In this document: in pieces, positions 12,952 to 27,448 of the stretch | Layout: the number at the start of each line of letters is the position of its first letter | Position numbering within the stretch: the first letter of the stretch is position 1 | Source: Formosa sp. Hel1_33_131 | GTDB taxonomy: Bacteria; Bacteroidota; Bacteroidia; Flavobacteriales; Flavobacteriaceae | Length of the DNA: 32,000 nt | Reading direction: 5' to 3' | NCBI RefSeq assembly: GCF_001735745.1 | Contig: NZ_CP017260.1 | Span: forward strand, 1,620,001 to 1,652,000 | Notes under the pieces: generated by a model | Told to the model about the DNA's origin: nothing | Databases searched by the model: none | Seen by the model: the letters and a program-made list of their open reading frames with translations, nothing else | Program-made: the position numbers and the translations under genes

Positions 12952-12957
12952 AAAGCG

Positions 12958-13893
12958 ATGACAAAAAAACCGACTACTGAAGAATTATTAAATCTTCTTG
13001 ATGATAAATACAGTGCGATACATCAAGATCGTGAAGTGCATCTCGAAGGATTATTGCACAGTAACTCCATAACCTACTGGGACTATATACATACAGATGC
13101 GTTATTAGGCTTGCAAATTCAACGGACCAATCTTCCTGACGAAATGGTATTTATTGCTTACCATCAAATTAATGAATTGATTTTTAAAATGATTCTTTGG
13201 GAAATTAAACAAGTTTCCGATTCGTCTTCTTTAGAAGTCAATTTTTTTCAAGACAAACTCATGCGAATCAGTCGTTATTTTGATATGTTAACCACCTCTT
13301 TCAATATCATGAGAGAAGGGATGGATGTCGCTCAGTATAATAAATTCAGACATACACTAACCCCTGCGAGTGGGTTTCAAAGTGCACAATATCGTAAAAT
13401 TGAATTTGCTTCTACAGAACTTATTAATCTGATTGATGTGCGTTTTCGTGGCAATATTGATCGAGAGACTCCTTTTGAGCACGCCTTTGAACATTTGTAT
13501 TGGCAAGCTGCTGGGAAAGATTACAAAACAGGTCAGAAATCTACCTTATTATCCAACTTTGAAAATCGTTATAAAGAAGAATTTATCACCTTTATGAAGG
13601 TCTATAACACCAAAAATATTTGGACACGTTTCAAAGAATTACCCCTTGAAGCCCAACAAAAAAAGAGTCTTGTGGAGGCTATGAGGCATTATGATTATAC
13701 CGTTAACATCACATGGGTGATGGCGCACTATAACGCCGCTAAACACTATATTTTAGGAAAAGATGGCGATGGAGAAGCTACCGGCGGAAGCGATTGGCAA
13801 AAATATATGCATCCAAAATACCAAAAACGAATATTTTTTCCTGAACTTTGGAGCCAAGATGAAAAAGATAATTGGGGACATGACGTTGAGTAA
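12958..13893 (+). CDS. kynA: Tryptophan 2,3-dioxygenase family protein
   Basis: 311 aa. YWDYIHTDALLGLQ ... DEMVFIAYHQINELIFKMILWE matches the TDO helix-B signature (DE.LFI..HQ..EL.FK). Confidence 0.8.
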   Translation: MTKKPTTEELLNLLDDKYSAIHQDREVHLEGLLHSNSITYWDYIHTDALLGLQIQRTNLPDEMVFIAYHQINELIFKMILWEIKQVSDSSSLEVNFFQDKLMRISRYFDMLTTSFNIMREGMDVAQYNKFRHTLTPASGFQSAQYRKIEFASTELINLIDVRFRGNIDRETPFEHAFEHLYWQAAGKDYKTGQKSTLLSNFENRYKEEFITFMKVYNTKNIWTRFKELPLEAQQKKSLVEAMRHYDYTVNITWVMAHYNAAKHYILGKDGDGEATGGSDWQKYMHPKYQKRIFFPELWSQDEKDNWGHDVE

Positions 13894-15142
13894 GTATAAA
13901 AAGTATTTTAATGTAAAATTTTTCCTTTACGGATTTGTTGCAATCAGCCTTTACAGTATTTTTAAAAGTTGTTCGAAAGACACTTTGGTTGAAGAAGTAA
14001 TAGAGGAGGTAACGATTCAACCAGATAATTTTAAATTCGGTTACAACCTCAATAATTATCAGGTTATAAACGACACTGTGAGAAGTGGAGATAGTTTTGG
14101 CGTACTGCTCGAAAAACATCAGTTATTTTATCCGAAAATCCATCATATCTCAGAAAAAACAAAAGAGGTTTTTGATGTACGCCGCCTGAGAATTGGGAAA
14201 CCTTACACGGTTTTGTTTTCGAAAGAAGAGACTAAGGCCCCCTTGGTTTTCATATATCAGCCTAGTAAAATAGAATACCTAGTCGTTGAATTTTGTGATT
14301 CAATTATTGCGAGTATTGAAAGAAAGCCCGTTAAAATCATTGAAAAGGAATCCTTTGGTGTCATAGAAAGTACACTTTCTGAAACGATGGAAAATCAAGG
14401 ACTGCCTACCCAATTGATTTATGATATGTCTGATGATATTTATGCTTGGACCATCGATTTTTCGAGACTCCAAAAAGGCGATAATTTTAAAGTGATTTAT
14501 AACGAACGTTTTGTGGACGACTCTGTATATGCAGGGATTGAAAGTATCAAAGCAGCATATTTTGAACACAAAGGCGAGGCATTTTATGCCTTCAATTATA
14601 TGAATCAAGAGTCGAAAAACAACACCGATTATTTTGATGAAAACGCCAAAAGTCTTCGTAAAGCCTTTTTGAAAGCACCCTTACAATTCAGTCGCATTTC
14701 CTCTAGATACAATCTAAAAAGAAGAATTGCTTATTACGGAAACCGTGTAAAACCTCATAAAGGAACCGATTTTGCAGCCCCAATTGGCACACCTATTTTA
14801 GCAACCGCCAACGGAACCGTCATTGAATCGAGACGAAAAGGAGGCAATGGAAACTATGTAAAGATTAGACATAACGCTACCTTTAGCACTCAGTATCTGC
14901 ACATGAGCAGACGCTTGGTGAAGGTTGGGGACTACGTCAAACAAGGCGACGTAATTGGCAAAGTAGGCATGACTGGAAATACGGGCGGTCCCCATGTATG
15001 CTATCGTTTTTGGAAAAACGGAAAGCAAGTAGATCCCTTTCGTCAAAAATTACCAGATGCAAAAGCATTACCAGCACATTTAAAATCTAACTTTGAGGAA
15101 TTTATCGCGCCTTTAAGACAACAACTCGATTCAATAAACTAA
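13880..15142 (+). CDS. M23-family peptidoglycan metalloendopeptidase, membrane anchored
   Basis: N-terminal TM (FFLYGFVAISLYSIF). M23 motifs HKGTDF (HxxxD) and GNTGGPHVCYRF, which sits at the HxH position but reads H-V-C. Start is ambiguous: ATG 13880 or 13859. The track start 13763 lies deep inside the TDO gene. Confidence 0.85.
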   Translation: MTLSKYKKYFNVKFFLYGFVAISLYSIFKSCSKDTLVEEVIEEVTIQPDNFKFGYNLNNYQVINDTVRSGDSFGVLLEKHQLFYPKIHHISEKTKEVFDVRRLRIGKPYTVLFSKEETKAPLVFIYQPSKIEYLVVEFCDSIIASIERKPVKIIEKESFGVIESTLSETMENQGLPTQLIYDMSDDIYAWTIDFSRLQKGDNFKVIYNERFVDDSVYAGIESIKAAYFEHKGEAFYAFNYMNQESKNNTDYFDENAKSLRKAFLKAPLQFSRISSRYNLKRRIAYYGNRVKPHKGTDFAAPIGTPILATANGTVIESRRKGGNGNYVKIRHNATFSTQYLHMSRRLVKVGDYVKQGDVIGKVGMTGNTGGPHVCYRFWKNGKQVDPFRQKLPDAKALPAHLKSNFEEFIAPLRQQLDSIN

Positions 15143-15165
15143 TATTATATATTTAAAATTAACTG

Positions 15166-16785
15166 ATGGCATTACAATCAATAAATCCAACTGAAACAAA
15201 AACGTGGGCAAAATTAAAAGTTCACTTTGAAACAATCAAGGATCAGCACATGAAAACATGGTTTGCTGAAAACCCAGGCCGTGCAGATGAATTCACCATA
15301 CAATGGGACGATTTTTATGTTGATTTTTCAAAAAACAGAATCAATTCTGAAACCATGACACTTTTTAAAGAATTGGCTGAGGAACTTCAACTAAAAGATG
15401 CCATTTCAAAATATTTTGAAGGCGATGTGATCAATCACACTGAAGGCAGAGCTGTACTTCATACCGCACTGAGAGCGCCTGAAGACACTAATGTTTTAGT
15501 CGATGGCGAAAATGTGATGCCAGAAATATATAAGGCAAAAACTTTAATAAAAAACTTTTCGGAGGCCATTATCAATGGTACTAAAAAAGGATACACAAAT
15601 AAAGCATTTACCGATATTGTGAATATCGGAATAGGCGGTTCAGATTTAGGACCTGCTATGGTGGTGGATTCTTTGGCTTTTTACGGCAATCATCTCACAC
15701 CTCATTTTGTGAGTAATGTGGATGGCGATCACGTCAACGAAGTCTTAAAAACACTCAATCCAGAAACCACGCTTTTTGTAATTGTCTCTAAAACATTCAC
15801 CACTCAAGAAACACTATCAAATGCAAACACCATTAGAGAGTGGTTTTTAAACTATGCCACTCAAGACGATGTCGCCAAGCATTTTGTAGCAGTGTCCACC
15901 AATACTGCGAAGGTACAAGCCTTTGGCATTGAGCCTTCCAACATCTTTCCTATGTGGGATTGGGTAGGCGGTCGTTTTTCGCTTTGGAGTGCCGTCGGAT
16001 TAAGCATTAGTTTGTCTGTTGGATATGAGAACTTTGAGGCACTTTTAGAAGGAGCCCATAAAATGGATACCCATTTTAAAGAAGAAGAATTTGAAACAAA
16101 CATTCCAACCGTCTTGGCTTTTTTAAGCATTTGGTATAATAATTTTTTCAAAGCAGAAAGTGAAGCAGTCATCCCTTACACGCAATATTTGAATCAATTT
16201 GCCACTTACCTTCAGCAAGCCATTATGGAAAGTAATGGGAAAAGCATTGACCGATCTGGGAAGCAAGTGGACTACCAAACAGGGAATTTAGTTTGGGGAG
16301 AGCCTGGCACCAATTCGCAACATGCCTTTTTCCAATTAATCCACCAAGGAACAAAATTGATTCCTGCGGATTTTATTGGGTTTACAAAATCATTACACGG
16401 CAATAAAGACCACCAAGATAAACTGATTTCTAACTTTTTTGCACAAACAGAAGCACTGTTAAATGGTAAAACAGAAGCTGAGGTACAGACAGAAGGCACC
16501 TCCGCAGAAATTGTTCCTTTTAAAGTATTTGAAGGCAACAAACCAACCAATACCATTTTTATCAAACAACTCACTCCTGAAAGTTTAGGGAAATTAATTG
16601 CGATGTATGAACACAAAATATTTGTTCAAGGAGTGGTGTGGAATGTCTTTAGTTATGATCAATTTGGAGTCGAATTAGGTAAACAATTAGCGACCAAAAT
16701 TTTAGATGAAATTAACACGGGTTCTGTAACGAACCACGACGCTTCTACTATCAATCTTTTAAGGCACTACAAGAAGAACAGCTAA
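15166..16785 (+). CDS. pgi: Glucose-6-phosphate isomerase
   Basis: 539 aa with classic PGI signatures ([51 protein letters not shown]). Confidence 0.95.
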
Positions 16786-16840: not shown

Positions 16841-16870
16841 TTGTAATCTGTTTAATAATCCTTACTTTTG
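16841..16870 (+). promoter_or_regulatory. Candidate Bacteroidota-type promoter (TTG-N19-TActTTTG) for the TonB-dependent receptor operon
   Basis: TTG at 16841-16843 and TAnnTTTG at 16863-16870 with 19-nt spacing, 40 nt upstream of the ATG at 16910. Confidence 0.35.
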
Positions 16871-16909
16871 TTTAATAAATTTAACCAATTATTAAACATA
16901 ATTAAAATT

Positions 16910-19459
16910 ATGAAAAAGATTACACAATTATTATCTTTCGCCTTGATGGTGTGTACGTTATCAGTTGCTGCTCAAAGCACTGTGACAGGTACAATCATTG
17001 ACGCTGGACAACAAGCGCCTTTACCAGGAGCTACTGTTGTAGAGAAAGGAACGTCAAATGGCGTATCTTCTGATTTCGATGGAAACTTTACGATTAACTC
17101 TTCAAGCTCAACTGGTGAGGTCGTAATTTCCTATGTTGGCTTTGTGTCTAAAACAATTTCTTTTACTGGGAATATGGACCTCGGATCCGTTTCACTAGAA
17201 GCAAGTGAATTCGGTTTAGAAGAAGTTCAAATTTTTGCTTCTGTTGCAGTGGACAGAAAAACACCCGTAGCAGTTTCAACAATCAGAGCGGCTGAAATTG
17301 AACTTAAATTAGGAACACAAGAATTTCCTGAAATTTTAAAATCAACTCCAGGTGTCTATGCGACAAAAGCTGGAGGTGGATATGGTGATGGTAGAATTAA
17401 CCTTAGAGGGTTTAACTCAGAAAATGTTGCCGTACTTATAAATGGTATTCCAGTCAATGACATGGAAAATGGTCGTGTATACTGGAGTAACTGGGCTGGA
17501 CTCGGAGATGTTACTTCTTCTATGCAGGTTCAAAGAGGTCTTGGAGCTTCTCGAGTAGCAGTACCTTCTATTGGAGGAACCATTAATATTATCACTAAAA
17601 CAACGGATGTTGAAACTGGGGGTAATGTGTTTTCGTCAATTGCAAATGATGGATATGAAAAACTAGGTGCAACTTACTCTACAGGGGTTATGGATAATGG
17701 TCTTGCCGCTACAGTTTCTGCAGCGAGAACAAGAGGAAATGGCTATGTTGATGGTACGGAATTTAATGGTGTATCTTATTTCTTAAACTTATCTAAAGAA
17801 ATCAATGACGCTCATAAAATATCATTCTCAGTGTTTGGAGCTAAACAACGTCATGGACAAAGACAAAACAGACAGTTAATTGAAACGTTCAAAAACTCAG
17901 AAAGAGGCAGAAAATTCAATTCAGATTGGGGTTACAAAAATGGAGAAGTTACTCATCAAGAGGATAACTTCTACAACAAACCACAAATGTCATTAAATCA
18001 CTACTGGACAATTAGTGAAAAGTCTAGTTTATCTACTGTATTGTATGCTTCTTTTGGCTCTGGTGGCGGAGGAGGAACTGCAGGTGAGAATAAATTTATT
18101 TTTGACGGTTCAGGTTACAGTGATTACAGAAATGGTTTATATGGAACTATAGATTTCGATCAAATTGTTGACGAAAACATCGCAAGAGGAGCACTCGGAT
18201 CAGAAACAGTTTTGAGAGCATCTCACAACGACCACAATTGGTTTGGAGCGTTATCGACTTTCAAAACAGATTTTTCAGACGATCTTGTTTTGTTAACTGG
18301 ATTAGATGTTAGAAGCTACACAGGTAAGCACTATCAAACAGTTACAGATCTTTTAGGAGGACAGTACTTCCTAGATAACAATAACGAAAACAATCCTAAT
18401 GCAGCATTGCAAGTAGGAGATAAAAGAAGTTATTATAATGACGGTAATGTAGGTTGGTTAGGAGCATTTGCTCAGTTAGAGTATGATGTGAATGAAAACT
18501 TCAACACATTTGTTTCTTTAGCATTATCAAATACATCGTACCAAAGAGTTGATTATTTCAATTACTTAGATTCTGATGCATTACAAACTACAGATACTTA
18601 CAATTTCGTAGGCTACAGTGCTAAAGGGGGTGCTAACTACAGAATTGATGCTAAAAACAATGTTTTTGTAAACATTGGATACTTTGAAAAAGCTGCAGGT
18701 TTTGATGCAGTATTCTTGAACTTCAATAATGAGACGATTAATGCAGATGCAGAAAATCAAAAAATTACTAGTTTTGAATTAGGGTACGGATACAGATCAG
18801 GTAAGTTGTCTGCGAATGTAAATGTATACTATACTGCATGGAGAGACAGAACAGAAACTCAAAGTTTCAGACAGCCAGACAATACGAATGCTGTTGCTAA
18901 TATTTTAGGTGTGGATGCTGTTCACCAAGGACTTGAATTAGATTTTGTTTACAGAGCTACAGAAAAATTAAAAATCACAGGAATGGCTTCATTTGGTGAT
19001 TGGAGATGGGATAGCGATGTAGAAAATGTTCAAATTGTAAATGAAGATCAAGAAGTTGTTGACAATGTAAACTTATTTATAAAAGATTTACATGTTGCTG
19101 ATGCAGCTCAAACAACAATGGCTTTAGGAATTAATTATAAATTAACTCCAAAAACAAAGTTTATTGTTGATTACAATTACTATGCTAATATTTATGCTGA
19201 TTTTGATCCAAGTGATAGAGGAACTCAAGGAGCTCCAGACGCATGGAAAATGCCTGATTACGGCTTGTTTGACACAGTAATCAGTCATACTTTCGACTTA
19301 GGACCTTTTGAAACGACTATGACGGCTCGCATGAACAATGCGTTTGACACGGAATATATTTCAGATGCTAGAGATGGATCTGGATCTGTATCTAGCACTG
19401 CTTTGGTGTATTATGGTTACGGAAGAACATTCAGCCTTGGCGCAAAACTTAATTTCTAA
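16910..19459 (+). CDS. TonB-dependent receptor with N-terminal carboxypeptidase-regulatory-like domain
   Basis: Signal peptide (MKKITQLLSFALMVCTLSVAAQ). CarboxypepD_reg-like segment (TVTGTIIDAGQQAPLPGATVVEKGT..SDFDGNFTI), a plug region (INLRGFNSENVAVLINGIPVND) and a long beta-barrel ending in ...GAKLNF. ATG 16910 is preferred over the TTG at 16868. Confidence 0.9.
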   Translation: MKKITQLLSFALMVCTLSVAAQSTVTGTIIDAGQQAPLPGATVVEKGTSNGVSSDFDGNFTINSSSSTGEVVISYVGFVSKTISFTGNMDLGSVSLEASEFGLEEVQIFASVAVDRKTPVAVSTIRAAEIELKLGTQEFPEILKSTPGVYATKAGGGYGDGRINLRGFNSENVAVLINGIPVNDMENGRVYWSNWAGLGDVTSSMQVQRGLGASRVAVPSIGGTINIITKTTDVETGGNVFSSIANDGYEKLGATYSTGVMDNGLAATVSAARTRGNGYVDGTEFNGVSYFLNLSKEINDAHKISFSVFGAKQRHGQRQNRQLIETFKNSERGRKFNSDWGYKNGEVTHQEDNFYNKPQMSLNHYWTISEKSSLSTVLYASFGSGGGGGTAGENKFIFDGSGYSDYRNGLYGTIDFDQIVDENIARGALGSETVLRASHNDHNWFGALSTFKTDFSDDLVLLTGLDVRSYTGKHYQTVTDLLGGQYFLDNNNENNPNAALQVGDKRSYYNDGNVGWLGAFAQLEYDVNENFNTFVSLALSNTSYQRVDYFNYLDSDALQTTDTYNFVGYSAKGGANYRIDAKNNVFVNIGYFEKAAGFDAVFLNFNNETINADAENQKITSFELGYGYRSGKLSANVNVYYTAWRDRTETQSFRQPDNTNAVANILGVDAVHQGLELDFVYRATEKLKITGMASFGDWRWDSDVENVQIVNEDQEVVDNVNLFIKDLHVADAAQTTMALGINYKLTPKTKFIVDYNYYANIYADFDPSDRGTQGAPDAWKMPDYGLFDTVISHTFDLGPFETTMTARMNNAFDTEYISDARDGSGSVSSTALVYYGYGRTFSLGAKLNF

Positions 19460-19470
19460 AAAAAAACAAA

Positions 19471-20580
19471 ATGAAAAAAATAATTTATTGTTTAGCAATT
19501 TTAGGAACAACAATGATGAGTTGTAACCCTAATGAAGACATCTATAACGAATTAGATGCACAAGCAAGTCCAATTGTTGGTGACGCCGTTTATACGCTCA
19601 CAGATGATGATTACGATGCTTTAAGTTTAAACTATGGCAATTTTAATTCAACAGAAGATGCCAAGGATATGATTCCAGCGTTATTGTCAGATATATTTCC
19701 TGTTTGGGGACTTGGTTCAAGTGCTTTAGTATCATTTAATATATACAATCCAATTTCTACATATGACGCTGAAGTTTATGAGCTTTCATCAGCAGAATGT
19801 AATGCAATCACAGGTCAATCATATGGAAACTTTTCAGACAGTGGACATGTATATGATTACTTAGATGCTACTTACCCTAGCCCAACTGAAGGTGATTTTG
19901 TTTCTTTAAGATATGATTACTATTCTGGAAGCGTAAGTACGCTCACAAATGGTTTTTCTTATGAAAACGGAAATTGGAAAAAGTTTACTGGATTTACAGA
20001 AGATCAGTACTCTGCAATGGGAGAAGGTTATCCTAACTTTTCAAGTTCAGATGAAGCAGACATTAAAATTCCTGTTGCTTTGTTAGACGTATATCAATTT
20101 GACCCAAGAAGTCCTGGCGATGTTGTGTTATCTATGTATGAATTATATATGGGCAGTGGAGTTACGAAAAGTTTTACGGCAGCATATATCTTTGACGGAG
20201 TAGCATTTCATCCCTATGAAAACGAAATTGTAGAAACAGTTCAGTTTGGTCATGATGGAGAAAGCTGGGTTCCAGACAATACAATCAAGTATGATCTAAC
20301 TTCAGATGATGTTGCTTTGATATCAAGTGCATTTATAGATCAATACCCTGGTCCTGCTGATAACGTCGGATATTTTGAAAGTTTTGACAGAAGAACTTCA
20401 AGCTCTAATTACTGGTCAGACAGTATGTTACTTGAAGCATTCAATGTATTATTAGATGATATGGATGCTTCTGCTGAGGAAGGACAAAAATATGTTCTTA
20501 AATTTGTTGTCTATACTGGTGCAACAGGAAACGAAATCATGAGTCTTATTAAAACGGACGGAATGTGGGTTGTTAACTAA
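19471..20580 (+). CDS. Lipoprotein with four internal repeat modules, partner of the upstream TonB-dependent receptor
   Basis: Lipobox ...TTMMSC (Cys18) followed by NPNEDIYNE. Starts 11 nt after the TBDR stop. Contains four degenerate ~50-75-aa modules. No family recognised. Confidence 0.7.
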   Translation: MKKIIYCLAILGTTMMSCNPNEDIYNELDAQASPIVGDAVYTLTDDDYDALSLNYGNFNSTEDAKDMIPALLSDIFPVWGLGSSALVSFNIYNPISTYDAEVYELSSAECNAITGQSYGNFSDSGHVYDYLDATYPSPTEGDFVSLRYDYYSGSVSTLTNGFSYENGNWKKFTGFTEDQYSAMGEGYPNFSSSDEADIKIPVALLDVYQFDPRSPGDVVLSMYELYMGSGVTKSFTAAYIFDGVAFHPYENEIVETVQFGHDGESWVPDNTIKYDLTSDDVALISSAFIDQYPGPADNVGYFESFDRRTSSSNYWSDSMLLEAFNVLLDDMDASAEEGQKYVLKFVVYTGATGNEIMSLIKTDGMWVVN

Positions 20581-20609
20581 TACCCCTATACATTTTTTTT
20601 AACATCACA

Positions 20610-20636
20610 AAAGCCATCTATTTTATAGATGGCTTT
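20610..20636 (+). terminator. Terminator-like hairpin between the lipoprotein and endonuclease I genes
   Basis: 11-bp perfect stem AAAGCCATCTA/TAGATGGCTTT with a 5-nt loop. The downstream T tract is interrupted (TTTATGTTTT). Confidence 0.5.
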
Positions 20637-20662
20637 ATGTTTTAATTTTAATATATTTGAGA

Positions 20663-22027
20663 ATGAAAAAAATTATACCAATTTTCCTTTTTACTAGTTT
20701 GTTTATTAATTGTAGTTCGGGAGATGATTCCGGATCAAGCAACCCAGATACAAACAATAATAATAATACAGGTCAGTCTATAGCAGTTGACGACTCCTTT
20801 GACGCCCTAGAAGACACCGACTTTATTATTGAAAACTTATTATCAAATGATACCGTTGAGGACAATGCGGTCATAACCTCCTTTGATGAAACCACAGTGG
20901 AAGGCGGAACCATAGTTGACAATAGAGATGATACGTATATCTATACTCCAGCCGTTAATTTTATTGGAGAAGATTCTTTTACTTATACACTCTGTGATAA
21001 CGACTCGCCAGCCGATTGCTCTACAGCAACAGTGACGATCATCGTTGCAGACCAAGGGAATCCAGTTGCGGAAGACGATGCTCATAATGTTTCTCAAAAC
21101 ACTTCTAAAATAATTACCAATCTATTAGAAAACGACACTGTCATTGATGAAGCGGTCCTTTCTTCAATAGATTCTTCCCAAACCTTGGGCGTTGTTGTGT
21201 TGAACTCTGATGGTTCAGTAGAATACACACCACCAACAAATTACTTGGGTACGGATAGTTTTATGTATAGTATTTGTGATGACGATACTCCAAACAATAC
21301 CTGTTCATCGGCTGTGGTATCAATTACAGTATTAGATTCCTTTTCTTTTAATATTCCAGGCGATTTAATCGGTTATTATACAGGAATTCAGTTTGTTGCA
21401 GACCCAGATTTAATGTATGCTGAATTAGCAAACCATACATCTGAGAACCATACCACAATATTATCGTACACACAACGTCATGACTATTTATATGATGCGG
21501 ATGCCGATTTAACAAATACAAATAATGTTGTTTTGATGTATACTGGAGAAACGCGCTATTGGCAAGAATATACTTCTGGTTCAAACTCCCATTCACCTCA
21601 GACATTTAATACGGAACACGTTTATCCACAATCTTTATTAGGCTCTAATATTGCTTTAACCGATTTACATCACCTAAGAGTGTGCGATGATGATGTTAAT
21701 TCAACACGGAGCAACAAAGCGTTTGCAGATGGAAGTGGAGGCAATTACTTGACATCATCTAACGGATGGTATCCTGGCGACGAATGGCGTGGCGATGTTG
21801 CACGTATGATCTTGTATTTAAATATACGATATGGGGAGAGTTTTGACTCGGTAGGGGATTTGGACCTCTTTATAACTTGGAACATTGAAGATCCAGTATC
21901 AGAATTTGAGAACCAAAGAAATACTGTTATATACTCTGCTCAAGGCAATAGAAACCCTTTTATAGACAACCCTTATTTGGCGACTCTGATTTGGGGTGGT
22001 GATGATGCAGAAAATAAATGGAATTAA
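20663..22027 (+). CDS. Lipoprotein: two cadherin-like (tandem-95-type) repeats fused to an endonuclease I (EndA/Vvn-family) domain
   Basis: Lipobox LFINC. Two ~90-95-aa repeats. C-terminal motifs are typical of periplasmic/extracellular endonuclease I: NTEHVYPQS, RSNKAF, RGDVARMILYLNIRY and QGNRNPFIDNPYLA. ATG 20663 is preferred over the TTG at 20657. Confidence 0.85.
   Translation: MKKIIPIFLFTSLFINCSSGDDSGSSNPDTNNNNNTGQSIAVDDSFDALEDTDFIIENLLSNDTVEDNAVITSFDETTVEGGTIVDNRDDTYIYTPAVNFIGEDSFTYTLCDNDSPADCSTATVTIIVADQGNPVAEDDAHNVSQNTSKIITNLLENDTVIDEAVLSSIDSSQTLGVVVLNSDGSVEYTPPTNYLGTDSFMYSICDDDTPNNTCSSAVVSITVLDSFSFNIPGDLIGYYTGIQFVADPDLMYAELANHTSENHTTILSYTQRHDYLYDADADLTNTNNVVLMYTGETRYWQEYTSGSNSHSPQTFNTEHVYPQSLLGSNIALTDLHHLRVCDDDVNSTRSNKAFADGSGGNYLTSSNGWYPGDEWRGDVARMILYLNIRYGESFDSVGDLDLFITWNIEDPVSEFENQRNTVIYSAQGNRNPFIDNPYLATLIWGGDDAENKWN
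20777..21331 (+). repeat. Two tandem in-frame ~95-aa cadherin-like/tandem-95-type repeats within the nuclease gene
   Basis: Repeat 1: SIAVDDSFDALEDT..LLSNDTVED..YIYTPAVNFIGEDSFTYTLCDNDSPADCSTATVTIIV. Repeat 2: PVAEDDAHNVSQNT..LLENDTVID..VEYTPPTNYLGTDSFMYSICDDDTPNNTCSSAVVSITV. The boundary is at nt 21061/21062. Confidence 0.65.
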
Positions 22028-22069
22028 ACAGGTATCTTTACATTTTAAAACTCATAAAACCAAAATCTC

Positions 22070-22501
22070 ATGATCAAAACAGTTCATTCCTATTGGGCCT
22101 ATTTAGTACTCGCAGTACTTATATTGGCAGTTTCTAAAGCCCTTATAGGCTACTTCGGAAAAAAAGACTACGATGCCAAAGCATTTCGAGTATCCCTATT
22201 TACCTTGATTGTTTCACACATTCAATTGCTTATTGGACTGCTGTTGTATTTCACCTCTGAGCGTTTTGGACAGTGGAGCAACTTAGGGGTTGGGGAAGTT
22301 ATGAAGAATGCAGACATACGCTTATACCTTGTAGAACATCCAATTATTAATATCTTAGCGGTTGCTTTGATAACGATTGGTTATTCTAAACACAAGAAAA
22401 AATTAATATCAGGGCCTAAATACAAAACCATCGCGATTTTTTATACCGTCGCCTTAATTTTGATTCTCTCTAGAATTCCATGGAATTCGTGGCCAGTGTA
22501 G
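22070..22501 (+). CDS. Small 4-TM integral membrane protein of unknown function; its 3' end is the duplicated target of the adjacent insertion
   Basis: 143 aa with four hydrophobic helices. The C-terminus ...IPWNSWPV-stop is encoded by the left direct repeat. Confidence 0.6.
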   Translation: MIKTVHSYWAYLVLAVLILAVSKALIGYFGKKDYDAKAFRVSLFTLIVSHIQLLIGLLLYFTSERFGQWSNLGVGEVMKNADIRLYLVEHPIINILAVALITIGYSKHKKKLISGPKYKTIAIFYTVALILILSRIPWNSWPV

Positions 22502-22512
22502 TACTTATAGAA
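22475..22512. repeat. Left 38-bp direct repeat (attL-like): ATTCCATGGAATTCGTGGCCAGTGTAGTACTTATAGAA
   Basis: 36/38 identical to 26197-26234. Encodes the last 8 codons plus stop of the 22070-22501 gene. Its left edge lies inside the 16-bp palindrome GAATTCCATGGAATTC (22473-22488). Confidence 0.85.
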
Positions 22513-22538
22513 AAAGCAGCCATTTGGCTGCTTTTTTT
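22512..22538. terminator. Bidirectional intrinsic terminator between convergent genes
   Basis: Stem AAAAGCAGCC/GGCTGCTTTT (22512-22521 / 22526-22535) with loop ATTT. It is flanked by an A-run and a T-run, so it could serve both the + strand membrane-protein gene and the - strand 153-aa gene. Confidence 0.7.
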
Positions 22539-22569
22539 ATTTAAAAGATGCTATTATTTTAAGCTAATT

Positions 22570-23031
22570 TCAGCGTTTATTTATCATGTACGGGTTTATA
22601 TTATCTTTATGTTTAATTAATCCAGTAAAAAAAGATAAAATTTTAGTATCATCACTAACGATAATTGAAGTAATTAACTTGTTTTTTTTAACAACGAAAA
22701 AGACATCCTCGCTTTTAGGGTAATTTATATTATATGAACTAAATTTTTCGTTATCAATAAAGTCTTTATAAGACATAATATCAAGCTGTTTCATATCTTT
22801 TATTTCACCTCTTAAGAAGTCAATATTAAAATTAAGAAATTTTAATAGTTCAGAATCTGGAATTAAAGAATCTTTTTCTAAATCCAAATATTCATTTATG
22901 TTATCAATATTATATGATTTATCTAAAATCACTTTTTCAATAAATTCTGAAATCAACTCTTTTTTTACATCTTCAGTTTTACAACTAAAAGTCACTATAG
23001 TCAATAATAATATTAGTTTCATCTTTTTCAT
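22570..23031 (-). CDS. Orphan small lipoprotein (153 aa), operonic with the upstream 606-aa lipoprotein; candidate cognate immunity/inhibitor protein
   Basis: Lipobox IVTFSC (Cys17) followed by KTEDVKKE. The ATG is 15 nt after the stop of the 606-aa gene. The gene is very AT-rich and no recognisable family motifs were seen. Confidence 0.6.
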   Translation of the reverse strand: MKKMKLILLLTIVTFSCKTEDVKKELISEFIEKVILDKSYNIDNINEYLDLEKDSLIPDSELLKFLNFNIDFLRGEIKDMKQLDIMSYKDFIDNEKFSSYNINYPKSEDVFFVVKKNKLITSIIVSDDTKILSFFTGLIKHKDNINPYMINKR

Positions 23032-23046
23032 TTTTGCTGTTTTAAA

Positions 23047-24867
23047 TTAACATCCTTTATGAGTAGCAGGTGCATTTCCTGCAGTCGTATTTGTTGTAAC
23101 CCCAGCTGGAGGGGTTAAATTTCTGATATATAATCCAAGTGCTCCAGGGTTAGAGCCACTGCCGCCCGGCCATGTGCCGTTTGCAGCTGGAAGACCAAGA
23201 CCGCCTAGATTTCCAATCTCTATACCAAAATCAGTACAGTTGTAGTTATTCAAATTATAAGTTGATGTAAAATTAATTGATGCATTAATTATTTGTTGAA
23301 GTTGAGCTCCTGTTATGCTAGTTGAAATACTAGCCGTAAAATTTTCATTCCCACTTCCGTCATTTCCTAAAACGGCTGTTCCAGATGTGTTTAATGGACT
23401 TATCCAGTCTGAAACCGGGTAATAACCAAAAACACTCGTATTAACTCCTTGAGAAATAGACACAAAAGAATGACCAACATAACTACCGTCGTTTGCATCT
23501 CCTGATCCCGGAATAGGCTCCTTGGCATAAACAGTAACTACAGCGTCTTGAGTGGCGTCAAAACATTCAAAAAAATCAGTTAAATCTGTAATAGGATTTT
23601 CGGGTCCATCAACAAGTACAATATCATTAAAACTATCAATGTCACTGGTTGTATCCATCATCGCCTCAATAGTGTTTTCAGCAAAGGTTTTAGCTTGAGT
23701 GTACTCATAAAAAGAACCGTTGTTTTTTTCGGCTAAAAAATAAAATATGTTTTCTGTCAATTCGTGATCAGATGACAAATAATAAAATTGTGTTCTATTT
23801 TGAGCATATAGGGTAAAAGTAAACTGGAAAAAATCATATATTATTTTTTGTTTTACGATATGGTCTACTAAAGTGGTTTGTGACGAAGTAACATAAGAAT
23901 TTATCTGTGACACATATACCTTTTCATAGTAATCTTTAATAACATTCTTTATTCCAGAAAAATAATAGGCATAATAATTATTAAATGGACTCGCAGAACT
24001 TGAAGGGTTATAGGCAGGTATTGTTAAGTCATTTGTTGAAAAGTACTGTACCGGAGTTGTATAGTTATGACCATATCCATATGGTGCGAAATTGTTATAA
24101 TTTATACCTACAAAAACCCCTGCCGCTTGCAAAGCAGCCATAACATTAGGTGGTAAGGAGTTTAAAGGAGGTAACGCATACCCTACTCCAGATGCTGAAG
24201 GACCTCCATAGCCACTATTATTAGAATATGGCACCCATATAACTGTAGCGGGACCGTCATCTTCACATGAACATGTATCTCCACTTCTTGCTGAAGTATT
24301 CTTTTTAGAATTAGAATCTATGTCTGTCGTTTCTAAATCAAGGTAGGATATTTTATCCCAAAAGCCATCAAAACTTTGATTATTAGTAGCAACCAGTAAC
24401 TCTTCGTTTGTTAGTTCATATTTTATTAATTGACTCTTCAATTGGTTGTTTTCGTCATAATAGGTGTGTAAATTAATAATTTCATGAAGATTAGTGTTAT
24501 CGGTAGGGAAATCTACTTCAAAAGTATATGAAACCTTACCATTTTCATTTTTTATACTATTATAAGCTTCTGTTTTTATTTGGATGTCTTCAAGGTTTAT
24601 AGGATCATTTTCAGTCCCTTTTCCACTAGATTTCCTCATGCTCTTTGGTGGTGCAATCTCAAATATTTGTTTAATTTTTGATAGGTTTTTCTCCACTTGA
24701 TTTTTTAAATCAACATTATTTATACTTTCTTTGATTTCAACTTTAATTTGTCCTTGTTTTTGAGTTGTTGAAATAGTCTCATCTTTACTACAGGAATTAA
24801 AAGAGAGAAGGGTTAATAAAAATACTAGACTGAAATTTGATAAATTGTTTTTTAGTGTTGTTTTCAT
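23047..24867 (-). CDS. 606-aa predicted surface lipoprotein with a C-terminal permuted papain-like (NlpC/P60-clan, PPPDE/LRAT-like) His...Cys domain
   Basis: Lipobox LLSFNSC (Cys26) followed by SKDE, a K-(D/E)2 surface-export-like signal. The C-terminal region at ~aa 440-565 reads VTVYAKEP..SYVGHSFVSISQG..SVFGYYP......YNLNNYNCTDFGIEIG. This has the order His466 (nt 23470-23472) then Cys544 (nt 23236-23238) within an NCxxF motif. Confidence 0.7.
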   Translation of the reverse strand: MKTTLKNNLSNFSLVFLLTLLSFNSCSKDETISTTQKQGQIKVEIKESINNVDLKNQVEKNLSKIKQIFEIAPPKSMRKSSGKGTENDPINLEDIQIKTEAYNSIKNENGKVSYTFEVDFPTDNTNLHEIINLHTYYDENNQLKSQLIKYELTNEELLVATNNQSFDGFWDKISYLDLETTDIDSNSKKNTSARSGDTCSCEDDGPATVIWVPYSNNSGYGGPSASGVGYALPPLNSLPPNVMAALQAAGVFVGINYNNFAPYGYGHNYTTPVQYFSTNDLTIPAYNPSSSASPFNNYYAYYFSGIKNVIKDYYEKVYVSQINSYVTSSQTTLVDHIVKQKIIYDFFQFTFTLYAQNRTQFYYLSSDHELTENIFYFLAEKNNGSFYEYTQAKTFAENTIEAMMDTTSDIDSFNDIVLVDGPENPITDLTDFFECFDATQDAVVTVYAKEPIPGSGDANDGSYVGHSFVSISQGVNTSVFGYYPVSDWISPLNTSGTAVLGNDGSGNENFTASISTSITGAQLQQIINASINFTSTYNLNNYNCTDFGIEIGNLGGLGLPAANGTWPGGSGSNPGALGLYIRNLTPPAGVTTNTTAGNAPATHKGC

Positions 24868-24947
24868 AATAATTTAGGGTTTTAAAAATTTATATGATTC
24901 AATATTATAAAAACAAAACAATCTTAAAGTCCAGAATTATTAACTTG

Positions 24948-26105
24948 TTAATGATTTTGGACTAATTTTTTATAGTTATTTGGAGTATGTCCTGTGATTT
25001 TTTTAAAAGCATTATAAAAACTTGTCTTTGTATTAAAACCAGATTCAAGTCCAATTGCAGTTATGGTGTATTTGAAATAATCATCATCTAATAATAATTT
25101 TATAGCATTTTCAACACGCATATTATTAATATATTCATTAAAGTTATTATCTGTATTAGAATTTATTATTTGAGATAAATACCCTTCGCTCAAGTTGGTC
25201 TGTTTAGAAATCATTTTAAGACTTAATTTTGGCTTAAGGTATAACCTACGCTTTAAAATGAGATTATTAATTTCCGAAAACTTATTGGGGTTGATATTTT
25301 CTGAGAGCTCATCAATTTCTAATAATTTATTTTGATTTTTTGAAGTGTCTTGATCTTTAGTGATTCTACTTTTTATAATTCTATTTCGGATTTCTCCACG
25401 CTCCTCATAAATACTATTTTGAAAAATTGAAGTATAAGCAATCCAATAAATAAGTACAGAAATACCAATCCATAAAGGATAGTATTGATAATATCCACTG
25501 GGAAAATAAGATTCAAAAACAGTAAGTGAAAGCAACCACAATATGCAAAGAAAAAAACCAAAGATTAGAATCCGTTTAAGCCAAGTAACTGTGATTGGAA
25601 TTTCATTAAAAGAGTCGTTCGCTACTTTCTTTTCATAATCTCTTATGTTTTTAAAAACTAAAAAGATGATTACTAATGAGAACAACAGAGAGCCATACTC
25701 AATCACAAGATTAAAAAACTCAATAACTTTTGAGTTAACCCTAGCTAAATCAGTCAGTATTTGATAGAAAATAGCAGAAGAAAATGGAACTAATAATAAA
25801 AATATATGATGTTTTTTGAAATCATTTTTTAAATAACTTTTCACAAATAAAAAAAACATCGGAACCATTAGGAACTCAAATGGAATAAATATTAGATTGT
25901 TGTTTTCATAACCTGGAGACAAGCCAACATCTAAAAGCCAATATTGTAGATTACTAAAACACAATGCTAGAATAGTAAGAGCTAAAAAAATATTTGTTTT
26001 AGACTTTAGTTTAGGGTTGAAAAATAATATGAAGCTAAAAATTATCCCATGCACTATACCTAGTACAATTAAAATATTGTAGAAATTGAGGTTAAGTGAA
26101 TTCAT
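24948..26105 (-). CDS. Membrane-embedded AraC/XylS-family transcriptional regulator (about 7 TM helices + C-terminal HTH)
   Basis: The C-terminal ~97 aa (nt ~24951-25241) carry the AraC double-HTH signature (LSLKMISKQTNLSEGYLSQIINS....AIGLESGFNTKTSFYNAFKKITGHTPNNYKK). The N-terminal ~235 aa contain about seven hydrophobic helices. ATG 26105 (MNSLNLNFYN) is preferred over the TTG at 26153. Confidence 0.85.
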   Translation of the reverse strand: MNSLNLNFYNILIVLGIVHGIIFSFILFFNPKLKSKTNIFLALTILALCFSNLQYWLLDVGLSPGYENNNLIFIPFEFLMVPMFFLFVKSYLKNDFKKHHIFLLLVPFSSAIFYQILTDLARVNSKVIEFFNLVIEYGSLLFSLVIIFLVFKNIRDYEKKVANDSFNEIPITVTWLKRILIFGFFLCILWLLSLTVFESYFPSGYYQYYPLWIGISVLIYWIAYTSIFQNSIYEERGEIRNRIIKSRITKDQDTSKNQNKLLEIDELSENINPNKFSEINNLILKRRLYLKPKLSLKMISKQTNLSEGYLSQIINSNTDNNFNEYINNMRVENAIKLLLDDDYFKYTITAIGLESGFNTKTSFYNAFKKITGHTPNNYKKLVQNH

Positions 26106-26196
26106 AAATAACTTATTACTGGTTAAAGTTGTGAAAAATAAACATACAATCAAAAATTTCGAGCGAGTTTTTTCCTTTACAAGAAGTTGTTTGTTT

Positions 26197-26234
26197 ATTC
26201 CATGGAATTCGTGGCCAGTATAGTACTTATAAAA
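26197..26234. repeat. Right 38-bp direct repeat (attR-like): ATTCCATGGAATTCGTGGCCAGTATAGTACTTATAAAA
   Basis: 36/38 identical to 22475-22512. It still reads IPWNSWPV-stop in frame, but an in-frame TAG at 26080-26082 and the unrelated upstream sequence show it is an orphan gene tail. Confidence 0.85.
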
Positions 26235-26371
26235 GAGGCTGTCTGAAAATCAAACAAATCTGTCATTCTGAACTTGTTTCAGAATCTCAGAATATTGGAA
26301 ATCAATTTGTTCTAGAATCTGAAACAAGTTCAGATTGACAAAACAAAGTCTTTTCAGACAGCCTCTTTTAT
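26229..26371. repeat. 143-bp nested inverted repeat (long hairpin/cruciform) between the right direct repeat and the 3' end of the EEP nuclease gene
   Basis: The outer arms ATAAAAGAGGCTGTCTGAAAA (26229-26249) and TTTTCAGACAGCCTCTTTTAT (26351-26371) are perfectly complementary over 21 bp. The inner arms GTCATTCTGAACTTGTTTCAGAATC (26262-26286) and GAATCTGAAACAAGTTCAGATTGAC (26315-26339) pair with two mismatches. Each inner arm is itself a TCTGAA-n5-TTCAGA mini-palindrome. Confidence 0.85.
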
Positions 26372-26389
26372 GAATATAGGTAAGTCGAA

Positions 26390-27448
26390 TTACTCCACTT
26401 CTTTAATAACGTGCACATACACAGGAAGGTGATCACTATAGCCCCCAATAAATCCACTATAGGTAAAGCTTCGAAAAGGATAGCCTTTGTATTTTCCTTT
26501 TTTATTAATTAAATAAGGTGCATTAAAGATGCCAGCTTTGTAGAACCTAAACGAACTATAATCGTCATCTAGCAGCGGTTTGCTCACCAAAATCTGATCA
26601 AATAGAAACCAAACCCCTTTGTACGCATTGGTTCCAATCCCTGTTTTATAGATCGCTTCCATTGGGTTGTAAATCCCCTTGAATCCTACGAGACTTTTAT
26701 CCCCTTCAGCTTCTAGGATTTTCTTTACACTATCATTATCAGGATTGTCATTAAGATCTCCCATCGTAAATATTTTGGCATAGGGATCGTTGGATTGAAG
26801 AGAATCAATCAAACGCTTATTAAGGGCTGCTGCTGCCACACGTTTGGAACGACTTTTGGCTTCTCCACCACTTCTAGAAGGCCAGTGGTTTACAATCACA
26901 TGGATCAAATCACCCTCTAAATACCCGCTGACCAGCAGTTGATCTCTTGTGTAATCTCTTTTGTCTTTGCTGTCATCCATGAGTATTAGCTCGTGAGTGC
27001 TTGAACTTAATGGTGTAAATAATGTTTTTTGATACATTAATGCGACATCAATTCCACGCTCGTCTGGAGAATCAAAATGTACAATCCCATAATCTTTTGA
27101 TAGTAAAGCAGGATCATTGGCTAAATCTTCTACAACAGACCTGTTTTCTACTTCCGATAGTCCAATGATTGCAGGCGAATTTTTAGACCCTTCACTTCCT
27201 ATTTGAGAAATAACCTTCGCCATATTTTGGACCTTCTTTTTATAAACTCCCTCCAAATTAGTTTTAAGCTTCATAATAGGGCTAGCCTCATCATATTTAT
27301 TGGGGTCATTGATCGTGTCAAAGAGGTTTTCAACATTATAAAACGCAACCGTATGAATTTTAAATTTTCTTTTTTCTTGCGCCTGGCCTATTGTAAGACA
27401 CAACAGGCTGAAAAACAGCAGTGTATTTGAAATAAATTTTTGAGTCAT
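26390..27448 (-). CDS. Secreted endonuclease/exonuclease/phosphatase (EEP)-family nuclease
   Basis: Signal peptide MTQKFISNTLLFFSLLCLTIGQAQ. EEP motifs are present: VAFYNVENLFD (N-terminal Asn/Glu), GLSEVEN, VIVNHWPSR, MGDLND and the C-terminal YSDHLPVYV. Confidence 0.85.
   Translation of the reverse strand: MTQKFISNTLLFFSLLCLTIGQAQEKRKFKIHTVAFYNVENLFDTINDPNKYDEASPIMKLKTNLEGVYKKKVQNMAKVISQIGSEGSKNSPAIIGLSEVENRSVVEDLANDPALLSKDYGIVHFDSPDERGIDVALMYQKTLFTPLSSSTHELILMDDSKDKRDYTRDQLLVSGYLEGDLIHVIVNHWPSRSGGEAKSRSKRVAAAALNKRLIDSLQSNDPYAKIFTMGDLNDNPDNDSVKKILEAEGDKSLVGFKGIYNPMEAIYKTGIGTNAYKGVWFLFDQILVSKPLLDDDYSSFRFYKAGIFNAPYLINKKGKYKGYPFRSFTYSGFIGGYSDHLPVYVHVIKEVE

Follow-up and report, generated by a model that had tools for sequence, protein, structure and literature searches.

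A three-gene insertion behind a Formosa membrane-protein gene, probably one of a family of recombinase-free cassettes at conserved gene ends

The three-gene block of about 3.8 kb that lies directly 3' of a membrane-protein gene in Formosa sp. Hel1_33_131 is an insertion relative to the near relatives of this strain, as confirmed by empty sites in their genomes. The window, that is, the whole stretch of DNA analysed, comprises 32,000 nucleotides (contig NZ_CP017260.1, positions 1,620,001 to 1,652,000). The same junctions are seen in three lineages, between which the cassette has a lower dS than its flanks; a near-identical pair of loci differs by a clean insertion/deletion of the block; and the repeat-flanked modules have three unrelated target genes, with tandem accretion at one of them. 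We consider it probable that the block belongs to a family of recombinase-free integrative cassettes of 3.5-3.75 kb, which sit at the 3' ends of conserved genes and are bracketed by copies of the gene tail; the duplicated segment would be the attachment site, and the enzyme would be supplied by the cell. The locus is composed of the following features:

22070..22501, plus strand: target gene, encoding a conserved 143-aa multi-TM membrane protein with the tail IPWNSWPV-stop (ORF; 6602 homologues)
22475..22541, plus strand: left repeat copy, made up of the last 9 codons with the stop, the short hairpin (putative terminator) and the T-run to TTTTAT; a close match to the empty site L016, including the ATTT loop
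22505..22540, no strand assigned: short hairpin GCAGCC-attt-GGCTGC between an A-run and a T-run (folding)
22542..26196, minus strand: cassette body of 3655 bp, missing from the closest relatives (L016, L097, L099-L102) and found in the same arrangement in a second sample (L113)
22570..23031, minus strand: small 153-aa protein with a lipoprotein-type signal (…TFSC), the variable partner gene (ORF)
23047..24867, minus strand: 606-aa lipoprotein, residues 1-410 conserved between lineages (ORF, dS, AF2 and fold match)
24948..26105, minus strand: 385-aa membrane-bound AraC-type regulator, with 7 TM segments (counted by eye) followed by HTH_18 (Pfam, E 8e-17)
26106..26196, minus strand: upstream region of the AraC gene, ending at the junction where …GTTTGTTT is followed by ATTCC
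26197..26234, plus strand: right repeat copy, a cassette-borne orphan gene tail with an in-frame stop upstream (repeat search; linkage to AraC in L096)
26224..26376, no strand assigned: 145-nt nested hairpin that replaces the short putative terminator in the right copy (inverted repeats I3 and I4; folding)
26366..26371, plus strand: right junction TTTTAT, a 6-bp overlap where empty-site homology resumes (blastn end points 22540 and 26366 in six empty sites)
26390..27448, minus strand: EEP-family nuclease gene of the right flank, convergent with the membrane gene in empty sites (Pfam PF19580, E 1e-111; synteny)

The core of the repeat is a 38-mer (22475-22512 and 26197-26234) whose two copies are 36/38 identical, or 91% identical when extended to 43 nt, and both encode IPWNSWPV-stop. 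Allowing up to three mismatches, it occurs exactly twice in the window and never in 100 shuffles, which bears out the claim of the initial annotation that 38-bp repeats bracket three minus-strand genes; the ORF list and Pfam identify these as the genes for the 153-aa protein, the 606-aa protein and the multi-TM AraC regulator. The left copy had been read as the true end of the 143-aa gene, and the ORF at 22070-22501 does end there; the right copy had been read as an orphan tail, in agreement with the unrelated sequence upstream of it and the in-frame stop at 26080. The full repeat is longer than 38 nt: on the left, gene tail, putative terminator and T-run together span about 67 nt (22475-22541), and on the right a 145-nt nested hairpin stands in place of the 16-nt stem-loop and is followed by the same TTTTAT. 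The initial annotation had also named a dispersed genomic repeat as the finding that would undo its reading, and this was not borne out. In a metagenome scan with a 30-mer query (7/7 matches) and in all fetched loci, the 38-mer matched only this gene tail or the orphan copy on the AraC side. The proposed drop in G+C is real (29.5% for 22541-26365 against 36.5% in the left flank and 37.1% in the right) but smaller than the earlier hand counts implied. The lowest value among 400-nt windows is 21%, and the GC3 of the cassette genes (0.20-0.23) covers a range that overlaps two flank genes.

The polarity of the insertion can be read from the empty sites. Six close relatives (L016, L097, L099-L102), one of them a Formosa MAG about 95% identical, have a single copy of the tail between flanks of 90-96% nucleotide identity, in the order tail, short hairpin, TTTTTTTAT, GAATATA, EEP gene; with a further empty site in L023, the earlier reading of the block as an insertion holds. 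Because the left copy and its short terminator match L016 and blastn homology to the six empty sites runs through 22540, these two parts are the host's own, and the right copy together with the 145-nt hairpin is the inserted part. This reverses the polarity first proposed, in which the element restores the end of the gene that it enters: the native tail and terminator were kept. An element-borne copy that rebuilds the gene end, with the exchange on the 5' edge of the identical block, does not fit the window; L108 is ambiguous on this point. The empty site foreseen from that polarity, with the 38-mer directly followed by the 26229-26371 hairpin, was not found either, and all empty sites carry the short hairpin. 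Alternative cargo had been expected at the same site, and no unrelated cargo was found among the loci compared. The sole candidate (L009-L011) was rejected: in L009, the loss of 5.7 kb has fused the tail with the 3' end of a downstream gene of 128 aa, the breakpoint lying at the microhomology TATAAAAA. At occupied sites, the variable portion is the 3' half of the cassette. Across many genera of Flavobacteriaceae, the membrane gene and the EEP nuclease gene are convergent in most of the 95 fetched loci, and in most of these EEP directly follows the membrane gene; three of the exceptions (L047, L087, L088) have housekeeping neighbours.

Both hairpins are likely terminators, to judge from folding and position. 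The short one folds with -20.2 kcal/mol on the plus strand (z -6.0) and -16.9 kcal/mol on the minus strand (z -4.7), and after the insertion it likely serves as a bidirectional terminator common to the membrane gene and the cassette operon. The long one has a folding energy of -74.7 kcal/mol (z -13) and is likely the terminator of the EEP nuclease gene, a position in which it would insulate the AraC promoter; nested hairpins of the same type are found in the same spacer of Mariniflexile and other genera, and the type is widespread. An Rfam search with the long hairpin returned no family at threshold, and its identity as a known RNA was rejected, as the sub-threshold matches are miRNA-like and typical of any long hairpin. 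A 16-bp perfect palindrome at the left edge of the repeat, GAATTCCATGGAATTC, was likewise rejected as a recombinase site, as it is missing in the L108 and L103 lineages, which have the same cassette.

The cassette lies at the same site in two other lineages (L103-L107 and L108-L112), and the left junction is common to all three. The repeats are lineage-specific, with 40 nt in L103 and 63-65 nt in L108. Between lineages, dS is 0.38-0.39 for the AraC gene and 0.33-0.53 for the N-terminal part of the lipoprotein, the C-terminal part being saturated; in the flanks it is 0.81-0.99 for PGI, 1.0-1.1 for the membrane gene, 2.0-2.7 for EEP and 1.3-1.4 for the TBDR gene. Because the dS of the cassette (0.33-0.53) is well below that of the flanks (0.8-2.7), the cassette has moved between lineages. 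The cleanest comparison is that of L108 (occupied) with L023 (empty), which are 98-100% identical up to both junctions and are distinguished by a precise indel at the repeat. The hairpin loop in the left copy of L108 is foreign, and that in its right copy is the loop of L023. The apparent crossover thus differs between lineages, lying at TTTTAT, 3' of the hairpin, in the window and 5' of the hairpin loop in L108; later gene conversion or allelic exchange may have blurred its position. One further contig (L096) links the same AraC gene, orphan tail and long hairpin, at 99.3% nucleotide identity, to a different lipoprotein pair. It was considered as a second insertion locus and rejected: the remaining genes on it (242 aa and 161 aa) are those of a different variable locus, its sequence stops 16 nt past the hairpin, and its RpoN looks by eye atypical for Flavobacteria.

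Homologous modules, each composed of a 7TM-AraC regulator, a lipoprotein with a papain-like C-terminal domain and a small protein, were inspected at four independent loci in seven lineages or contig sets. In Kordia (L124), the module lies 3' of an ABC-transporter gene and is accompanied by a 68-nt tail repeat (66/68 identical). In L127/L128, it lies 3' of accD, and the 47-nt accD tail is present three times in tandem, with an orphan small gene between the last two copies. Two of the accD copies are 46/47 identical, and the internal one is 72% identical, its longest identical run with the others being at most 7 nt. The diverged copy keeps 9 of 13 residues at this nucleotide identity, which in so small a sample is no more than suggestive of purifying selection. 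The spacing from gene to repeat in the modules is only 13-94 nt, and a homologous module in Polaribacter (L118) has no flanking repeat. The three target tails have no motif in common, and the independent modules have no common end sequences. The suggestion in the initial annotation that the block is a cassette at a recombination hotspot or else a minimal island moved in trans gains strength from these two further loci, where homologous modules likewise come with duplicated gene tails.

On the preferred reading, the duplicated tail segment would act as the attachment site of the cassette, with insertion arising from recombination between the cassette's copy and the single copy of an empty genome, and deletion from recombination between the two copies of an occupied one. 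The enzyme would come from the cell instead of the cassette, either as RecA in general homologous recombination (a Campbell-type insertion-duplication) or as an unlinked site-specific recombinase. The intermediate could be circular or linear; the junction of a circle, in window coordinates, would read …AAGTTGTTTGTTT + tail + hairpin + TTTTAT + TTAAAAGATGC…. Two module-only contigs (L125 and L130) end in the repeat on both sides, and such identical ends fit a circle or an assembly-graph loop alike; L113 ends just beyond both copies. No circular or excised form was seen. Campbell-type RecA insertion-duplication of circular DNA creates a direct duplication as long as the homology, needs no dedicated recombinase and is reversed by deletion between the repeats, and the homology of 38-68 nt here approaches the shortest that RecA uses. 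This process does not suit the accD copy of 72% identity, which offers no usable identical run; with runs of at most 7 nt, a RecA-type route is hard to picture there. A single trans-acting site-specific enzyme is also hard to picture, since there is no common motif or end sequence. More tentatively, the module of AraC regulator, papain-like lipoprotein and small partner might constitute a separate class of mobile cassette in marine Flavobacteriaceae, which uses the captured tail of its target as attachment site, integrates at gene ends and accumulates in tandem, by an unlinked recombinase or by an undescribed route for short, diverged repeats.

A different explanation, which we regard as unlikely, is that the block is a presence/absence allele of a flexible-genome islet: one old duplication-insertion in the Formosa clade, followed by swaps of alleles through homologous recombination in the core genes on either side and by losses through repeat-to-repeat deletion, without any mobility of its own. 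The right junction, …GTTTGTTT followed by ATTCC, is identical in the window and L108 and is altered by decay yet recognisable in L103, suggesting one origin, and in the window as well as in L108 the repeats follow the allele of the host itself. Among close relatives, divergence peaks locally in the membrane gene (76-89% identity versus 95-97% in the flanks), a pattern also seen beside recombining islands. In addition, 6 of the 9 bases immediately right of the window junction differ from all close relatives, a small imported-looking tract that fits import of a whole occupied allele via flanking homology. Such exchange has been described in aquatic bacteria (PMC4033161). However, an islet allele leaves unexplained the orphan tail of L103, which is of the window's type and not L103's own, as well as the tail duplications of 47-68 nt at two unrelated loci in other genera, one of them a three-copy tandem.

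The gene content of the cassette was compared with that of known element classes. Pfam detected no integrase, transposase or recombinase domain in any ORF of the 32-kb window, and terminal inverted repeats or shared end motifs did not rise above shuffled controls in four modules, so that the corresponding statement of the initial annotation holds throughout the window. No recombinase was present in the precomputed Pfam listings for genes within 6-10 kb in the L103-L112, L114, L118, L124 and L127 contexts, and no tRNA was found in the window. A phage or plasmid carrier was rejected, as the tail pattern and the AraC gene had no match in viral contigs, the cassette DNA had none in plasmids, and the AraC membrane domain had none in plasmids and phages. 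The locus shares 3'-end direct repeats and an empty site with tyrosine-recombinase islands, and an integrase gene in or near the element is absent; similarly, it is flanked by att-like repeats without recombination or conjugation modules, like a CIME, and no integrase-bearing ICE or IME was found at the same att site among the 95 fetched loci. An IMEX or Xer dif-like element does not fit three repeats that are the tails of three different genes without a common motif. A transposon or IS does not fit the lack of a transposase, inverted-repeat scores within those of shuffles and duplications of 38-68 nt. An integron cassette does not fit hairpins that are terminator-like with A- and T-runs, the hairpin-free repeats of L124 and L127 and the lack of intI.

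These comparisons bear on a second alternative, which seems doubtful: that the block is a decayed integrase-bearing island or mobilisable element whose integrase was later deleted, and hence a CIME in the strict sense. In its favour, tyrosine-recombinase islands are recognised by direct repeats that copy a gene's 3' end, by empty sites, by low G+C and by tandem accretion (PMC5704250; bioRxiv 10.1101/2020.12.28.424599). Against this, decay would have had to spare precisely these three genes at three loci, independently each time and on two occasions at accD, leaving spacers of 13-94 nt; no integrase-bearing relative occurs at this site among about 95 genome loci, and neither the window ORFs nor the precomputed Pfam listings of the other contexts showed an integrase fragment. 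Much less probable still is a novel transposition-like process, with an unrecognised function of the cassette or the host, that duplicates 40-70 bp of target DNA. Unrelated targets without a common motif and a narrow range of repeat lengths (47 and 63-68 nt) would suit it, but the three proteins of the cassette all have the look of membrane or exported proteins, without resemblance to nucleases or recombinases, and the copies are non-identical even where the event looks recent (L108 versus L023). In the window the hairpin of the right copy is of another kind, and the internal accD copy shows 72% identity; a target-site duplication made at insertion is contradicted by such non-identical copies in the window, L108 and accD. 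The L103 and accD copies also suggest that the orphan tail is passed on from host to host, which speaks against this process. A chimeric assembly join at the short repeat has a negligible probability: metagenome contigs often break at these repeats, but an independent sample (L113, ERZ23499068) has the same arrangement across both copies at about 99% identity, and more than 30 contigs of two other lineages are also occupied.

The cargo that the proposed family carries combines a conserved regulator with diverging partners. The AraC homologues, which form more than 200 clusters, are 365-385 aa long and start at the equivalent of the ATG at 26105, a start that the mechanical ORF overruns to 26153. 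The last 200 or so residues of the lipoprotein (23047-23670) form a strongly diverged papain-like domain, and such a domain is at the C-terminus in all of the family's 1080 representatives. GH.F is invariant in a seven-row alignment and YNCTDF occurs in every full-length homologue. The AF2 model has a pLDDT of 79.5, and the best PDB fold match is CLN5 (6r99_A, E 0.011, probability 0.95); together with sub-threshold Pfam matches, this suggests a resemblance to CLN5-type papain-like enzymes at the level of the fold. The lipoprotein of L096 has an HExxH motif (by eye in the translation) and a weak match to Peptidase_M91. The two halves of the lipoprotein gene have different dS and dN values, and the small partner genes belong to at least three unrelated families; the 153-aa protein, for example, has no relation to the 158-aa gene that takes its place in L108. 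The gene layout, in which a conserved N-terminal part is joined to a variable C-terminal enzyme domain and a small gene that also varies lies downstream, is that of polymorphic toxin-immunity systems. It resembles in particular the SitA/SitI-type lipoprotein toxin-immunity pairs of myxobacteria (PMC5562445; survey PMC3482391), which also have a conserved front, a diverging or swapped enzyme-like C-terminal domain and a small unrelated variable partner gene, and the orphan partner gene in one array here adds to the likeness to polymorphic pairs. Unlike in those pairs, the C-terminal domain here is one family in most modules instead of many unrelated toxins, and the module has its own membrane-bound AraC regulator. 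A lipoprotein that is conserved at its front and diverges fast at its enzyme-like end, paired with a swapped partner, hints at strain-level recognition or antagonism under a membrane sensor-regulator.

Free-living marine flavobacteria have small genomes, few classical mobile elements and strain-variable gene content. The closest known counterparts of the cassette are the CIMEs and integrase-less integrative elements of streptococci, which have att-like repeats at 3' ends and no recombination or transfer genes, are thought to move with help in trans and undergo tandem accretion (PMC5704250; PMC7563491). The cassette shares with them the att-like gene-end repeats, the lack of recombination genes and the tandem accretion at one site. 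CIMEs derive from known ICEs or IMEs with the same att site and an integrase, in contrast to the three sites here, at which no integrase-bearing relative was seen, and the cargo here is one conserved three-gene module whose targets have no motif in common. The additive and replacement flexible genomic islands of aquatic bacteria are similar in their fixed position, presence or absence at the species level, diverged adjacent core gene and surface-exposed cargo; however, they are neither defined by a duplicated tail nor reported as one module at unrelated loci with its own repeats (PMC4033161). The tycheposons of Prochlorococcus (bioRxiv 10.1101/2020.12.28.424599) also occupy streamlined marine hosts, integrate at gene ends and use partial gene copies as repeats, and each new integration displaces older elements further inward, with degenerate repeats left behind, much as in the accD array. 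Unlike the cassette, which has no recombinase and protein-coding targets, tycheposons encode a tyrosine recombinase and have tRNA genes as their main targets. If the favoured reading is true, a compact, self-regulated surface-protein module that hops between genomes and gene ends without its own recombinase would be a vehicle for strain variation and could lead to the enzyme behind its movement. If that enzyme is simply the machinery of homologous recombination, the duplicated terminator and gene tail would keep both neighbouring genes properly terminated despite the insertion.

The insert in the window lies between two copies of a short sequence that form a direct repeat with 36/38 identity (extended match, 43 nt at 91%), and these are its sole copies in the window at ≤3 mismatches (0 in 100 shuffles). 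The features concerned are:

22070-22501: membrane-protein gene, 143 aa; its tail, IPWNSWPV-stop, is the left repeat copy
22475-22512: left repeat copy
22505-22540: short hairpin
22542-26196, minus strand: cassette body, including the 7TM-AraC regulator gene (24948-26105)
26197-26234: right repeat copy
26224-26376: long hairpin
26390-27448: EEP-family nuclease gene, convergent with the membrane gene

The right copy has the same nine codons as the left, with unrelated upstream sequence and an in-frame stop at 26080. Between the copies, the minus strand encodes proteins of 153 and 606 aa and a multi-TM protein carrying an AraC-type HTH_18 domain; the first two start, as judged by eye, with lipoprotein-type signal peptides. 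G+C content is 29.5% within the insert versus 36.5% and 37.1% outside. No ORF of the 32-kb window has a recombinase or transposase domain, the window holds no tRNA, and the cassette has no terminal inverted repeat. Repeat identity, composition and the domain search of the ORFs thus bear out the initial annotation, which had described a repeat bracketing a GC-poor three-gene insert without a recombinase. The tail also contains a perfect 16-bp palindrome, GAATTCCATGGAATTC (22473-22488 and 26197-26210), which is cut by the left repeat edge; it is probably coincidental, because it is found only in NSWPV-type alleles.

In most of 95 loci from many Flavobacteriaceae genera, the membrane and nuclease genes lie next to each other in convergent orientation. 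In the closest genome, an uncultured Formosa MAG (L016), nucleotide identity is 95-96% on both sides and the three genes are absent, and five more metagenome contigs (90-96% identity) are likewise empty. The order at these empty sites is tail, short hairpin (GCAGCC-loop-GGCTGC), T-run ending in TAT, GAATATA and nuclease gene. Homology of the window to them reaches 22540 and restarts at 26366, with the six bases TTTTAT in common; therefore, the duplicated unit consists of tail, terminator and T-run, ~67 nt. The left copy is the host's own sequence, with the ATTT hairpin loop of L016; the right copy is the odd one, a 145-nt nested hairpin (-74.7 kcal/mol) standing in for its stem-loop. The earlier proposal of integration at the gene's 3' end, with the gene restored by the element, therefore holds in part: there is an insertion without a recombinase and empty sites exist, but the polarity is reversed, and the empty site with a long hairpin that it predicted was not found, all empty sites having the short one. 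Nor is the 38-mer a dispersed repeat, which had been named as grounds for abandoning the proposal, since a 30-mer tail pattern has only seven matches in the metagenome collection, all at the membrane-gene tail or the orphan copy beside AraC.

Other variation surrounds this site. Long nested hairpins recur as an element type in Flavobacteriaceae (window 26224-26376; L073 10431-10570; the spacers of loci L034, L043 and L059), with an outer stem GAGGCTGTCTGAAAA…TTTTCAGACAGCCTC and an inner stem GTCATTCTGAAC… or GTCAGGTTGAGC…, and in several genera one takes the short terminator's place in the same convergent spacer. The stretch from PGI to the membrane gene is also lineage-variable (window 16868-22027; L001 3690-7906; L005 7490-8001): it encodes a TonB-type receptor, a 369-aa protein and a cadherin/endonuclease-I protein in the window and L016, carries 849-aa and 551-aa genes in the L001 type, and has just a 62-aa ORF in the L005 type. 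At locus L009 (934-1090; also L010, L011 and L098), a natural 5.7-kb deletion has taken out the EEP nuclease, 918-aa and DUF5689 genes together with most of a gene for 128 aa, whose 3' end is thereby joined to the membrane-gene tail at a TATAAAAA microhomology, at the foot of the terminator.

The same cassette occurs in two further lineages, where AraC homologues (91% and 87% identity) on >30 contigs (L103-L107, L108-L112) lie between the same two genes as in the window, followed by 630-aa and 158-aa genes. The left junction, …TTTTTTTAT/TTAAAAG…, is common to the window and both lineages; the window and L108 share the right junction, …GTTTGTTT/ATTCC…, which in L103 is altered yet recognisable. 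The repeat of L108 measures 63-65 nt, with a tail of L108's own type in both copies; that of L103 measures 40 nt and spans the hairpin, and its orphan tail is partly deleted and of the window type (CAGTGTAG), not L103's own. At synonymous sites, AraC has diverged by 0.38-0.39 between the window and these lineages and the lipoprotein's first 410 codons by 0.33-0.53, less than the 0.8-2.7 of the flanking genes; the cassette was therefore exchanged between lineages after their split. The occupied L108 matches the empty L023 at 98-100% identity as far as both junctions; this pair thus differs by a clean insertion or deletion. L108's left copy has CATG as a foreign hairpin loop and its right copy the ATTA loop of L023, as a single crossover inside the repeat, or a deletion between copies, would leave them. 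In a separate replacement hotspot ~2.3 kb from the cassette (L108, reverse complement, ~12600-15600), identity to L023 falls to 36-90% in these otherwise 98-100% identical genomes, over a DUF5689 gene and the C-terminal part of a 918-aa CarboxypepD_reg/Plug protein (936 aa in L108).

Modules homologous to the cassette also recur at unrelated gene ends. On a Kordia contig (L124), an AraC homologue (55% identity) is followed by 552-aa and 190-aa genes, and the module is flanked by a 68-nt repeat (66/68 identical) whose left copy forms the end of the ABC-transporter gene upstream. On contigs L127 and L128, an AraC homologue (46% identity) lies downstream of accD, and the 47-nt accD tail occurs three times: on accD itself; after the module, in a copy 72% identical that still reads as an accD tail (FYIDLITNQALRVL vs LYIDLIKNQPLRA-stop); and, 46/47 identical, after an extra 164-aa gene homologous to the small gene of the Kordia module. 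Given the three tails and the orphan gene, the array suggests that the same module family inserted twice in succession at one site and that the older insertion has decayed. Modules are 3.5-3.75 kb long, without terminal inverted repeats and without end motifs common to independent copies; the Polaribacter module has no flanking repeat. Precomputed listings contain no recombinase domain within 6-10 kb in any module context, and the cassette was not found in viral, phage and plasmid collections. On contigs L114-L117, an AraC homologue (72% identity) lies directly 3' of a murA-like gene, and all four contigs end ~140 nt past the AraC stop, which suggests strain-variable genes downstream.

The large proteins of all modules except that of contig L096 have only their C-terminal ~200 residues in common. 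Among solved structures, the modelled domain (pLDDT 79.5, pTM 0.80) best matches the papain-like human enzyme CLN5 (E 0.011, probability 0.95); it also has a sub-threshold Pfam match to the SidE deubiquitinase domain. In a 7-row alignment GH.F never varies, every full-length homologue contains YNCTDF, and in the family, with ~1080 representatives, the domain is always C-terminal. Between lineages the domain is saturated at synonymous sites (dN 0.56-0.58), and the front of the protein is conserved. The small downstream genes belong to at least three unrelated families, and L096 combines the same AraC (99.7% aa) with a different lipoprotein, in whose translation an HExxH motif is seen by eye, and another small gene. 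Judged from sequence, this cargo resembles polymorphic effector-partner pairs (PMC3482391, PMC5562445). In L096 (2941-3032) and L016 (17613-17704), at two different loci, unrelated small genes are preceded by a conserved intergenic segment of ~90 nt (86% identical), perhaps a promoter or leader that they share, or else a repeat causing chimeric assembly. Another variable locus (L119 3456-10486, L121, L123) has a conserved trio of 204-, 242- and 161-aa genes, then a Phd/YefM-type antitoxin gene, with different large genes upstream on each contig (705 aa; 363 + 311 aa; 332 + 297 aa).

These observations fit a recombinase-free integrative cassette whose attachment site would be a copy of the target gene's tail. 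What moves it may be homology-driven recombination (RecA, Campbell-type), which is favoured by the missing recombinase, targets without a common motif, repeats that match the host's allele in the window and L108, and an apparent crossover site that varies (for the window, 3' of the hairpin; for L108, 5' of the loop). An unlinked site-specific recombinase is favoured by three points: such elements typically have this overall architecture, tandem accretion included, the longest identical run of the internal accD copy is ≤7 nt, and only 6 bp of common sequence exist at the window junction. Ordinary allelic exchange via flanking homology also accounts for part of the Formosa pattern. Just right of the window junction, 6/9 bases differ from all close relatives. 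The membrane gene (21900-22500) is a divergence hotspot, with 76-89% identity vs 95-97% in the relatives' flanks, suggesting repeated allele replacement beside the insertion site. An assembly error is excluded because L113, from a second sample, spans both repeats in exactly the window's arrangement. Over 4 kb L113 and the window are ~100% identical, with one exception, a 300-nt patch (25141-25440, 79-95% identity) in the AraC gene linker, which is a small recombination tract within the regulator. After insertion, the nuclease gene faces the AraC promoter and the cassette operon faces the membrane gene, so two terminators would be needed, as far as gene orientations indicate. In the various lineages the orphan copy either retains its hairpin part or has another hairpin instead, and its coding part decays (L103).

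In summary, a conserved three-gene module without a recombinase is found repeatedly at the ends of unrelated genes, together with captured gene tails; this recurrence and the missing enzyme are its chief points of interest. Judged by their defining features, it qualifies neither as an integrase island, strict CIME or IMEX nor as a transposon or integron cassette. The known kinds nearest to it are integrase-less elements of the CIME type (PMC5704250), recombination-exchanged flexible islands (PMC4033161) and remnants of tycheposons (bioRxiv 10.1101/2020.12.28.424599).
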